DNA of 63,678 bases, counting the filler, from Licmophora abbreviata (lineage: Eukaryota), in the NCBI GenBank assembly GCA_900291995.1. It is 12 parts of 12 records of this genome, joined end to end, with 100 filler letters (N's around TTAATTAATTAA, not from the genome) between each part and the next. Parts side by side here need not be neighbours in the genome. Positions count along the whole stretch, not along the records: positions 39,272 to 41,182 come from OLMU01001659.1; 11 more parts are not named here. One strand, 5' to 3'. The notes beneath the pieces were generated by a model. That model ran no database searches. It was not told the origin of the DNA and worked only from the letters and a program-made list of their open reading frames with translations. Below, piece after piece: positions 36,706 to 41,282 of the stretch; within the stretch, counting starts at the first letter, position 1; each line of letters begins with the position of its first letter. Position numbers and translations under genes: made by a program.

Positions 36706-38244
36706 CTAGTCCTTGTCATCCAATAAAGACGAGGCTGGTGTGTCGCCGTCGCCAGAGGCGACGACTTCGTTTCTTGTCCAATCTTCACCACTACCCAGAC
36801 AATCGCTTTCCGCTGTCGCCACTAGATACACGGCAGAACCGATGAGTGACCCGCCAATGTAGCCAGCCGGGCCGAGAGTTTCGCGTAGTAGCGCCCACGC
36901 AACGAGTGCAGTAAAGAGGGGTTGAATAGTATAGATCAAGTTGGCATCTGTAGCATCGACACGACTCTGACCAAACGACTGAGCATAGATAGTATATGCG
37001 ATAGTCACGAGTCCCGTCCAGAGAACCGCGCCGGCCGCCGGAAGAAGGGTCGCTGCAGATATCGTCCCGCTCGACACATCCCTAGCAAAAGACGTGACAA
37101 ATTCAGCGATCGCGCTTCCTTCTTGCATTGCGAGCTCAAACATAGTACCACCCGTCCCGCCAGCTTGCGAAACTGCTACTAGAGTCAGCACTAGAGCGAG
37201 ACTTAGAGCGGTCTCTGTTGTCGCCTTGCATGCCGCCAACTTCAACGCAGAAGTCTCTCGGGCGAAACGACCAAGGCGAATGCAATGAAATGTATAGGAG
37301 AAGGCTGCGAGAATGATCAGCAGATCGCCTGATGAAAGACTATGGAAGGATGATAAGAATGTTGATAGGACTGAGCCGTCGTCGCTATTGTTCACCTGCC
37401 CGTCTAACGCCATGATCGCAACTCCCAGCAAGGCTATTAGACATGCACCCCATGTTCGCGGTGGAATCACAAAGATGTCCCGAAGAAAGATCGCCTGTAC
37501 CAATGGTACAAAGATCTTTACATGACGAGCAGCACGGTTCAGATTTGTGTTCGTTTATCTCGTACAGACACCATTCAACCGGATCGTTGAACCGCTTACC
37601 GTTGTAAGCTGTAAAAGGAAAGCTGCTCTATCTGACGGAACAGTCTTCAGACCCAAAACTTGTAGACCATTACCAAGGAAAAGATAAAGCCCAAGCTCCA
37701 TGCCTCCACGTATCGGTAATGATGTAGATTCTCCTGACTCTACTGCTATCTCGTCGTCAGTCCCATCTATGCTAGACTCGTCATCGGTAGAAGACAGATT
37801 CGATGCAGTGGACATTAGAACGAGAAACGAAAGCGATGCTGCTGCGACCAAGTAGTATGCCACGGAGAAGACAAACCCAGGAACAGGCGGTTGTATTGCG
37901 TACACATATCTCACGGCTGGTTCAAATGTTCCCCACGCCATTGGAACAGTCAAAAGAACAAGAATACCAATTTGACGATCGGGGCCAGAAGAAGTATTAC
38001 CCCCATTGCCGCCTCCCGCATCTGCGGGTAGCTTCACTGACCGTGATCTTTGAAAGGGGCGCCTCGATGTCGGACTGAACTGACTATTTGACTGAAATCG
38101 TGCACAAGAAGCCTTCTGCATGCGATGGACCGGATGGTGATGGCCCATCAGGTTCTGTGAGCAGATTGGAACAATAGACTCCACGAAGCAATGTGAGTTG
38201 GGCACTCCACCTAGCATTGCGATTGCAGTTGCTCGAGCGCGCAT
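36706..38244 (-). CDS. EamA/DMT-family transporter with an N-terminal targeting extension; intron 37516-37599
   Basis: About 10 TM segments with motifs GMELGLYLFLGNGLQVLGL, RAAFLLQLTT|IFVPL, GDLLIILAAFSYTFH, AQSFGQ..A.DANLIYTIQPLFTA and ETLG. Confidence 0.85.
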
Positions 38245-38558
38245 CCTCTATAGCACCTTGGGAACAGAAATGTCGACAAGGATCTCGTTGCCACCACATG
38301 GCGATCTTGTCATTAGCAGGATGGATTGATTCAGAATGCTGATGGCTCAGATGGCATCATCGCGCACCTCCCGCTGCGCGCCGCCCATCATACTCCACGT
38401 GCGGCGTACATCCGCGAAAACTATAGATGCGTTTACCCAAGTTTGAGAACACATAGGGTGAAGGGGAGGGACGAGATTCGGTTAAGTCTATTGCTGTGCA
38501 GGAACTGCGTTGTTGGTGAACGAGAGTGGCGAATTTGAACTCGGGAAGTCTGTAAATA

Positions 38559-39171
38559 TTATCGAATCGAAAATATTCTATTCTTCTCGGCCTCGACTGG
38601 TGAGGATGGGACATCTTTCGCTCTGCCGTCATTCGAACCTAATGTCTCTGGACCAGAATCGTCATCATGCCGCTGCTCTACTCCTGCTACTAGGTATACG
38701 GCGGACCCAATGAGCGCGCCACCCACGAAACCGGTTGGACCGAGCGTTTCCCCTAGCAAAACCCAAGCAAATAGTGCCGTGAAGAGTGGCTGGACAGTAT
38801 AGATCAAATTTGCATCTGTAGGGCTTACCCGCCGTTGACCAAAGGACTGTGCAAAGATGCTGAGAGAAACATAAGGCGATAGAGTAAGACCCACATTACA
38901 GTCGTCAATGCATTTGTGAGACAAGAAAACATCTTCGATCTACTAACGTGTATGCGCATGTCACCCATCCCGTCCACAGTGTAGCGCCGATCGCCGGAAG
39001 AAGAGCCGAGACTGGTACAGCACCAGATGGGATGCCATCGACCATGGCCGCAAAAAAGGATGAAATCTCATGTCCCGTCTCCCGTGCGAAGCCGACTAGG
39101 CCAGCCGCATCAGCATCACCGCTCATTGACAAAAGTCCCACTACCAGCGCCGTACTGAGCACGGCCTCTGT
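38559..39171 (-). CDS. Second EamA/DMT paralog, 3' part only; intron 38860-38947
   Basis: LLPAIGATLWTGWVTCAYT|IFAQSFGQRRVSPTDANLIYTVQPLFTALFAWVLLGETLG is closely similar to the neighbouring gene. Confidence 0.85.
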
Positions 39172-39271
39172 NNNNNNNNNNNNNNNNNNNNNNNNNNNNN
39201 NNNNNNNNNNNNNNNTTAATTAATTAANNNNNNNNNNNNNNNNNNNNNNNNNNNNNNNNNNNNNNNNNNNN
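39172..39271. other. Artificial contig spacer
   Basis: N44-TTAATTAATTAA-N44. Confidence 0.97.
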
Positions 39272-39351: not shown

Positions 39352-40977
39352 TCATGGTTTCTCGTCAGCTTTGGGAGTAATCGACGCGCCCGCCTCCAAG
39401 GCTCCGACTTCGTCAATGATTCGCTGCCGCTCTTCTGGATCCTTTTGCAGCTGCTCCATTAACTGTTGCCTTGCCGCCATGGTGCGACCATGGACCTCTT
39501 CAATTACGTCGTCCATGTCGCCACCTTTTTCCTCGAGAATACCAAGAACCTCGTCCGCATCTCGCCGGATTGTCGAAAGGACTGCATTAACCTCTTCCTC
39601 CGAGCAATTCTTCTTCAGTTGAGTAACCATGCCCTGCCACATATCGTCAAGCATATGCTCGTCGACTTCCTCTTTTTTTTCTGCTTCGTCTTCGTCAGCA
39701 TCCTCCTTACCAACCATCCAGTTGCCGTCCTTCATATCGTCAACTTTTCGAAAAAGTGTTTTCGGGATGAGTTGCTGCAGCATATACTTTTCTGCCATGT
39801 CCAGAAACTCACGAATTGCTTTTATCGATAGAAAGCACGTGGCGCCGACTATCATTTCGTGCTCGGAAGTCGGAGGAATTACTCCTTCGACAATGCCGCA
39901 CACCTTTCCGTCGTCGTCCAGTGCTGGACCACCGCACAATCCTTCCGGTAAAACCCGACCGGTACTTGCCAGAAAACGTTCTGAATCACTCGCAGCAAAC
40001 AACAATTTGCCAGTCTCAGCGAATGGTACAAAGACTCGCGTGTCGTCCATGGTCTGCAAAGCGATGATCGCAAAATATGTTGTTGGTCACATGCATACGA
40101 CCGTGCGGGGTTGCAACACTTAACGGCGCGGTTTCATCACGACATACCTCCTTCTCTGCTGGATCTAGTCCCGGTGGATCTGCAATCTCGAATCCATCAA
40201 AGTGCACCTTGTCGCCCTTGGAAGGTTGCTTGTCCTTGTCTGTCAAGTGCAGTATTTCGACCCCCAAGTCCGTCAAGTGTTCGAGCGCCCCATCTTCTTG
40301 CTTTAGATGCAGCATCGCAAGGTCCAAGCCCCGATCATCGTGAATGGGATAGGGATTTAGTGCAAATTTGGCCAACGCTTCCGCGTAGGGTCGTTGAGTG
40401 TCGAATACTTCCAAGGAGTATGTGCTGATGACGACGAGTAAGAGGCTTACAATGTGAGTACATTTTTGTGTCATGAACCCCCCTTCGAACACAATGACGG
40501 CCCGCAATTCCAGCACACGTACCAATGCTCAGGCTTCACTTGCTGTAACCACTCGTGTGGATAGTAGTTTTTCCAGTTCCACGGCGCCAAGACATGACTC
40601 GATGCCAAACAGTGCACAGTCGGTCGAAACTCCTTGGGACAAAACTCCAACCACCCGAGCTCGTGAACATGACGCTGGGGGCCTCCCGCCGGTGTGTAGG
40701 GATAACTTTGTTGCACCTTGCGCTCTTTTCGTCTCTCTTCAGATTCATCGAGATGACTGTACTTTCCACTGCCGGCGATGGGCGTCGGTGGCGTCGGGGG
40801 ATCGACCGCAAGCAAAAACGCAGTAGCGCGACTGAGGATTTCATAGTCCTTCATGCCAAAGTCGGGGTGCTTGAAGTGCACGCTCAGACCCACGGATTTT
40901 AACTGGCGCTTGGGGGCATTGCTCTGTTGGGAGACGGCTCGTTGTAAGAGCGCTGCTGAGGGGCGAAGCATCACCAT
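39352..40977 (-). CDS. Trypsin/chymotrypsin-fold peptidase-like protein with Cys at the nucleophile position; introns 40425-40522 and 40054-40147
   Basis: The spliced ORF has LASSHVL (His), LDLAMLHL (Asp) and PEGLCGGPALDDDGKVCGIV (nucleophile loop) in PA-clan order. Confidence 0.75.
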
Positions 40978-41182: not shown

Positions 41183-41282
41183 NNNNNNNNNNNNNNNNNN
41201 NNNNNNNNNNNNNNNNNNNNNNNNNNTTAATTAATTAANNNNNNNNNNNNNNNNNNNNNNNNNNNNNNNNNNNNNNNNNNNN
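41183..41282. other. Artificial contig spacer
   Basis: N44-TTAATTAATTAA-N44. Confidence 0.97.

Follow-up and report, generated by a model that had tools for sequence, protein, structure and literature searches.

The window, that is, the whole stretch of 63,678 nucleotides of Licmophora abbreviata DNA that was analysed, is made of separate contigs joined by eleven 100-base N linkers (e.g. 39172-39271 and 41183-41282, these two with a TTAATTAATTAA core). One 1,911-base contig (G000:C1659) is filled by a single-copy nuclear gene that is spliced, carries a start and a stop of its own and does not lie within a polyprotein (Table 1). Its coding strand is the minus strand, an orientation absent from the first-pass annotation. 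The three exons proposed there are borne out: both introns are GT-AG, and the spliced coding sequence of 1434 nt specifies a protein of 477 aa with a single terminal stop. The SSHV, DLAML and GLCGG motifs noted earlier recur in the spliced protein, where they hold His128, Asp186 and Cys284; the splicing agrees with the claim that the gene is nuclear-encoded.

Table 1 Features of the gene, in window coordinates
Feature	Position	Strand	Description
Exon 1	40523..40977	-	aa 1-152: presequence, first beta-hairpin (conserved M-x3-E-x-L-x-R), diatom-specific insert, His128, aromatic loop after His128
Predicted mitochondrial presequence, aa 1-28	40894..40977	-	5 Arg/Lys, 0 Asp/Glu; predicted from composition
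Arg50	40828..40830	-	Family-specific conserved residue; Arg in 71/78 representatives
His128 (CAT), predicted catalytic base	40594..40596	-	His in 285/285 proteins covering the column
Intron 1	40425..40522	-	98 nt, GTACGT...CAG
Exon 2	40148..40424	-	aa 152-244: Asp186 and conserved F-x-G strand
Asp186 (GAC), predicted triad acid	40322..40324	-	Asp in 292/292 proteins covering the column
Intron 2	40054..40147	-	94 nt, GTATGT...CAG
Exon 3	39352..40053	-	aa 245-477 and stop: second barrel with nucleophile loop, then diatom-specific tail
Cys284 (TGC), predicted nucleophile in G-L-C-G-G	39934..39936	-	Aligns to the HtrA catalytic Ser (G-N-S-G-G)
Glu300 of G-I-V-E-G	39886..39888	-	Conserved residue specific to the family, next to the active site; Glu in 73/78 representatives
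Acidic three-helix C-terminal domain, ~aa 375-450	39438..39663	-	Helical in the P0025 model

Among full-length homologs P0025 comes closest, with 52% identity over 449 columns and an alignment that is continuous across both splice junctions. A contig from run X3, which shares a study with the best-matching DNA data set and may not be independent of the assembly, spans 39890-40128 including the TGC codon with zero differences. Further to that, Cys occupies the nucleophile position in 120/120 homologs listed (the best 120 of 289 matches), 119 of which fit the motif pattern, P0068 reading GLCGC. Sequencing error in the Cys codon was considered and rejected on the basis of the X3 contig and, chiefly, of these homologs, which make a misread at Cys284 unlikely; the TGC reported by the first-pass annotation therefore stands.

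Two lower-bound searches of the same genome for paralogs matched this locus alone. As regards expression, no RNA data set was listed as containing the gene, and two runs guessed to be RNA gave short pieces only. Since the window consists of joined contigs and the gene fills its own, the neighbourhood is uninformative and genes across linkers are no real neighbours. A RuvX/YqgF-family gene (PF03652, E 2e-25) lies at the start of the next contig (41284-41889, plus strand). On the minus strand lies an EamA-type transporter gene (36706-38247), with its C-terminal part repeated as a near-duplicate shortly upstream (38559-38939), likely a tandem duplication.

Homologs and conservation of the predicted catalytic residues

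A search with the last exon as query returned 10 longer proteins, and a profile of these gave 289 matches; the named proteins among the best 120 are diatoms, and several of the sequences are transcriptome-derived. A profile of 58 homologs, searched against 1.84 billion representatives, produced 633 matches at E <= 0.001 (150 listed), to which a further search added 33. These wider matches include shorter proteins without the diatom tail. Named members (10/30 clusters looked up) come from Parmales, Nannochloropsis, Chrysoparadoxa, Discosporangium, Pinguiococcus, Blastocystis, Palpitomonas, Geminigera, Balamuthia and Willaertia, and so cover at least four eukaryote supergroups (stramenopiles, with Blastocystis among them, Cryptista, Amoebozoa and Heterolobosea); among the named matches, a minority of the total, no animal, fungal, plant, bacterial or viral protein was seen. 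Nothing describing this family or its motifs emerged from our literature search, although subscription journals and supplements may contain such an account.

Across the 336 collected proteins, a redundant set including fragments, the nucleophile column holds Cys in 272, Ser in 18 and Tyr in 1, so that Cys is conserved among protist homologs and the orthologs are not all Ser. All three triad columns are covered in 259 proteins, of which 241 are His-Asp-Cys, 17 His-Asp-Ser and one His-Asp-Tyr. For finer comparison we used 78 representatives of <55% identity; named and Ser rows served as seeds, so that Ser is over-counted. In this set His and Asp are each present in 78/78, the oxyanion Gly in 72/78, a second His in 76/78 and a Pro four residues after the catalytic His in 78/78, and the aromatic loop is conserved. 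A column restricted almost entirely to Cys or Ser beside invariant His and Asp is best read, from the alignment, as a working nucleophile.

In one Ser-reverted subclade (P0306, P0309, P0310, P0311, P0313, P0314, P0315, P0317 and P0319) the oxyanion Gly is replaced by Cys, Ser or Ala, and one of its members has Tyr at the nucleophile position. These proteins are possibly pseudoproteases, or their Cys may have been displaced by two residues. As several Ser members have no oxyanion Gly, parts of the family may be inactive.

Predicted fold and C-terminal tail

AlphaFold models were made of two homologs, P0025 (pLDDT 84.5), which represents the Licmophora protein, and the compact P0185 (pLDDT 90.7, pTM 0.88). 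HTRA1 was the top Foldseek match of the P0025 model (E 2.4e-9). In the wide structure search HtrA/Deg proteins ranked top for both models (Z 18.6-19.8), with V8 about 1 Z unit lower: the P0025 model matched Deg1, Deg2 and DegS at Z 19.1-19.4 (rmsd 3.2-3.9, 186-197 residues aligned), and the P0185 model matched Deg2, DegS and Deg9 at Z 19.5-19.8. A double beta-barrel is indicated by the match of both models to S1 proteases (Z 16-20 over 155-212 residues). At the sequence level, the best match of the family profile among solved structures was again HtrA (E 6e-4), with the Cys placed on the catalytic Ser; Pfam Trypsin_2 was matched by 29/42 members at E <= 0.1, and the look-alikes in the atlas are trypsin-like peptidases from bacteria and phages. 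We conclude that the protein has a predicted double beta-barrel fold of the HtrA/Deg type; the trypsin fold suggested by the first-pass annotation is upheld by these models, whose best matches reach Z ~19-20.

One or more PDZ domains at the C-terminus are usual, though not universal, in HtrA/Deg proteins. No PDZ match was found in the diatom protein or the members searched, in which the tail is helical or absent. In residues 336-477, acidic side chains outnumber basic ones 38 to 19, and the corresponding part of the P0025 model forms helices, in keeping with the acidic helical C-terminal domain described earlier. Of the 70 representatives measured, the only ones with tails of >170 residues were diatom-clade rows, and searches for a family of the C-terminal domain returned weak or designed-helix matches only.

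Proposed catalytic function

We consider it probable that the protein is a mitochondrial, ATP-independent cysteine peptidase of limited specificity, a reading in which catalysis, import and substrate are all deduced from sequence and models. Following clan PA chemistry, His128, oriented by Asp186, would deprotonate Cys284, which would then attack the carbonyl of the peptide bond; the oxyanion hole would be lined by the backbone NH groups of Gly282 and Cys284, and a thioester intermediate would be formed and hydrolysed. A putative hydrophobic S1 pocket (Leu279, Val299) would favour aliphatic P1 residues as in HtrA, rather than the Gln/Glu preferred by 3C. Arg50, Glu300 and the aromatic loop, all specific to the family, would read a defined substrate motif and, as there is no PDZ domain, the acidic helical tail of diatoms may provide substrate or partner binding. 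Such an enzyme would probably make selective cuts in a few mitochondrial proteins, possibly during the build-up or turnover of complex I. The earlier description as a cysteine protease of the trypsin fold is thus supported as to the conserved His-Asp-Cys and the predicted fold, whereas proteolytic activity is something that we infer.

The extra near-invariant polar residues near the site (the second His, Glu300 and Arg50) could also suit acyl transfer, thioester or deacylase chemistry, metal binding (through Cys, His, His and Glu), redox sensing on an HtrA-like scaffold, or a chaperone-like assembly factor. The matches at Z >= 16 include the inactive trypsin-fold proteins haptoglobin, scabies SMIPPs and MamO, and the Ser subclade and an NDUTB9-like protein (see below) have no oxyanion Gly, both of which would be in line with a function other than proteolysis. 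However, neither His nor Asp varies, 290/291 proteins carry Cys or Ser at the nucleophile position, and a metal ligand or redox thiol would not become Ser three times while His and Asp persist. We therefore regard a non-proteolytic role as unlikely.

N-terminus and probable mitochondrial import

The mitochondrial look of the N-terminus, remarked on in the first-pass annotation, is supported by the composition of the first 28 residues (Table 1). Among sequences whose N-terminal extension has at least 10 residues, the extension is basic and acid-free in 73/92 close homologs and 25/34 diverse representatives, compared with 5/32 of the window's long ORFs and 2.5-4.6% of internal segments. Together with the lack of any transmembrane stretch in the Licmophora protein, this suggests a soluble protein that is likely to be imported into mitochondria.

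Alternatively, an active cysteine protease could work elsewhere in the cell or in more than one compartment, in which case presequence and tail of the diatom type would be additions of that lineage. The presequence call on the Licmophora protein is based on composition, and N-terminal extensions are shorter than 10 residues in 20/54 Met-start representatives, many of them non-diatom, which start just 2-9 residues before the first strand. The family motif was not found in the supplement of the predicted Andalucia mitoproteome, which is a weak test. Nor did a search by name of the Euglena mitoproteome supplement reveal a family protein, and 'trypsin-like' is absent from the main text of the Acanthamoeba MitoCarta. 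On the other hand, presequence-like extensions are present not only in diatoms but in Palpitomonas, Geminigera and Balamuthia, the short N-termini are mostly basic as well, and the Diplonema relative DIPPA_32547 has mitochondrial proteomics support. A site of action other than mitochondria thus appears improbable, and we retain mitochondrial import as the preferred reading.

Apparent relatives among putative complex I subunits

A search of the diplonemid mitoproteome supplements (PMC12699882) with the family motifs led to DIPPA_32547, filed there as 'mitochondrial CI subunit NDUTB6'. By eye, all five motifs of the family can be read, in the right order, in its first 400 residues, the portion inspected, and His, Asp and Cys are kept; the first six letters of its His loop are identical to those of the Geminigera member, and three of the four motif spacings fall inside the family range. 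The chance expectation for the five-motif pattern, which was written after DIPPA_32547 had been seen and which matches 14/78 representatives, is ~1e-21. The supplements count it among the curated mitochondrial reference proteins and give its evidence as 'proteomics, literature' (PMC12699882). A second protein, DIPPA_22676, filed under NDUTB9, shows the hairpin, His-loop and Asp motifs by eye, with Ser and no oxyanion Gly; the supplementary tables consulted give no proteomics entry for it, and NDUTB9 itself is 'not retrieved' in the main table, yet has a structural hit in the supplement (PMC12699882). Both Diplonema homologs look trypsin-fold, on which the sections of PMC12699882 at hand make no remark. 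The label 'uncharacterised', given to the Licmophora protein by the first-pass annotation, hence needs qualifying: apparent euglenozoan relatives already carry the names NDUTB6 and NDUTB9, but are not termed proteases in those sections.

The NDUTB list also includes superoxide dismutases, a DnaJ protein and a ferredoxin reductase (PMC12699882), which are likely bystanders. Native bands of complex I from three trypanosomatids contained 11 NDUTBs according to the parts of PMC8312217 available, NDUTB6 and NDUTB9 not being among them, and the tables of PMC12699882 consulted name a counterpart in Euglena complex I for neither protein. Bystanders on the list, absence from the native bands and the lack of a Euglena counterpart all argue against a stable subunit role. 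The available main text of the Euglena complex I structure paper contains no 'trypsin', 'protease' or 'peptidase' (PMC10884005). No complex I chain occurred among the best 60 of 84 profile matches in solved structures, and a metagenome motif scan for a euglenozoan-type member gave one short partial member only. In favour of a link, Blastocystis, whose organelle keeps complex I without complexes III and IV, retains the family.

A transient role in processing or quality control fits the complex I data, which chance co-purification of mitochondrial proteins fits equally. A role at complex I is the best available functional lead, albeit a tentative one. It may be that we are dealing with an ancient, pan-protist family of mitochondrial chymotrypsin-fold cysteine proteases that process or quality-control complex I, with NDUTB6 as an active and NDUTB9 as a degenerate member, neither being lineage-specific, and with animals, fungi and plants apparently lacking the family; we put this forward as a rather doubtful possibility.

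Direction and probable origin of the Ser/Cys switch

With the nucleophile column left out of the tree (231 columns, 79 family rows and 8 outgroups), the Licmophora protein falls in a starred diatom clade adjoining a Parmales group. Ser rows are found inside Cys clades at three places, amounting to three changes on the tree: Nannochloropsis; P0233, whose sister is a Cys row (support 100); and the P0263 group, which is nested in a starred Cys clade. A single Ser clade, uniting nine Ser rows and the Tyr row (the latter added after the tree had been seen), was rejected (p-AU 0.035). We conclude that at least two of the three changes are returns from Cys to Ser, irrespective of the root. Rooting with HtrA outgroups is unreliable, as 7/8 outgroup rows occupy just 14-26% of columns; with outgroups so poorly aligned, the direction of the first Ser/Cys change has to be taken from the fold and not from the tree.

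The same genome encodes a Trypsin_2 protein (L009 90-869, G000:C6930) with a G-M-S-G-G loop resembling the G-M-C-G-G of the family. Aligned over just 42 profile columns, it lies near the family base in the tree and is a candidate Ser-type sister. A cluster of S1A-type trypsin genes with G-D-S-G loops occupies ~11 kb elsewhere in the genome (L014-L016, G000:C954 30893-41722).

The active-site motif of 3C proteases is G-x-C-G, and an S1 His (G-I/L/M-H) together with a Thr gives them specificity for Gln or Glu at P1. Among the 78 representatives, the column of the S1 His holds Val in 37, Leu in 18, Ile in 16, Thr in 5, Phe in 2 and His in none, and the position of the S1 Thr, five before the Cys, is Leu in 71 and Thr in one. 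Viral cysteine-protease Pfam families were matched by 0/42 members at E <= 0.1, and no 3C/3CL chain appeared among the best 50 rows of either wide structure search. In a viral library no fold match was stronger than E 1e-7, the best being trypsin-like and S39-type proteins; viral polyproteins appeared from 4e-7. Scans with diatom-type patterns, which do not extend to distant relatives, matched 40 stretches of viral contigs and 79 of prokaryote genomes, none of which was confirmed.

Domestication of a 3C/3CL protease from a positive-strand RNA virus would account for the shared G-x-C-G motif and the viral polyproteins among the fold matches, and would agree with the origin of all nine clan PA cysteine families of MEROPS in such viruses and with the closeness of viral PA proteases to HtrA, as stated in the parts of PMC6524800 (2019) consulted; it is nevertheless very unlikely, given the best structural and profile matches to cellular HtrA/Deg, the residue and search results above, and a spliced gene present across four eukaryote supergroups. 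Therefore, of the two origins put forward in the first-pass annotation, the convergent Ser-to-Cys switch gains from the cellular best matches, and no support was found for a domesticated viral enzyme. We favour a cellular switch from an HtrA/Deg-like ancestor over viral capture. One Ser-to-Cys change in an HtrA-like gene of an early eukaryote, followed by several returns to Ser, would be the corresponding history.

A conserved cellular Cys family in at least four supergroups would break the virus-only division of clan PA cysteine proteases, as drawn in the sections of PMC6524800 available. If our reading is true, a Ser/Cys switch took place inside cells on the HtrA scaffold, the one thought ancestral to viral 3C proteases, and the Cys-to-Ser reversions found in nature offer a way to test what the switch requires. 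Should the link with NDUTB6 and NDUTB9 also be true, two nameless complex-I-associated proteins would receive a fold and a testable function, and an unrecognised protease would be added to protist mitochondria.

Comparison with known systems

NDUTB6 (T. brucei XP_827669.1) and NDUTB9 (XP_829447.1) are annotated as hypothetical complex I subunits, not as proteases, and were likened to the new family by eye from their Diplonema sequences. DIPPA_32547 shares motif order, triad residues and mitochondrial proteomics, but is 797 aa long, with a long tail, and is missing the conserved Glu after the nucleophile. DIPPA_22676 likewise has its family motifs in order, and differs in the nucleophile and oxyanion positions described above.

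The staphylococcal V8/Spl proteases (S1B) resemble the family in fold (Z 18.5-18.7), small size and lack of a PDZ domain. However, they are secreted bacterial Ser enzymes, and the His that confers Glu specificity on V8 is missing in the new family.

The 3C and 3C-like proteases (MEROPS C3, C4, C30 and C37, clan PA) have in common with it the chymotrypsin fold, predicted here, and a His-Asp/Glu-Cys triad whose nucleophile, the Cys, lies in G-x-C-G, going by the parts of PMC6524800 consulted. Unlike these polyprotein components, the new family is cellular and encoded by a spliced, stand-alone gene, with neither the S1 His/Thr pair nor a Pfam match to 3C families.

The closest likeness is to HtrA/DegP/DegS/Deg (MEROPS S1C; Trypsin_2, PF13365; including mitochondrial HTRA2), which give the best Z and E-values for the predicted double beta-barrel and share the order His-Asp-nucleophile, the G-x-nucleophile-G-G-P loop, a hydrophobic residue five before the nucleophile and, likely, organellar targeting. 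In contrast, their catalytic Ser is Cys284 here (Cys in 272/291 relatives), the diatom protein has neither a PDZ domain nor a transmembrane anchor, structural alignments are just 10-18% identical, and the new family has its own conserved M-x3-E-x-L-x-R hairpin, aromatic loop after the His and E-G motif. With Cys in place of Ser and no PDZ domain the protein is not assigned to S1C, and as a stand-alone product without the S1 His it is not assigned to 3C: it is 3C-like in its presumed chemistry, HtrA-like in its predicted fold, and a member of neither.
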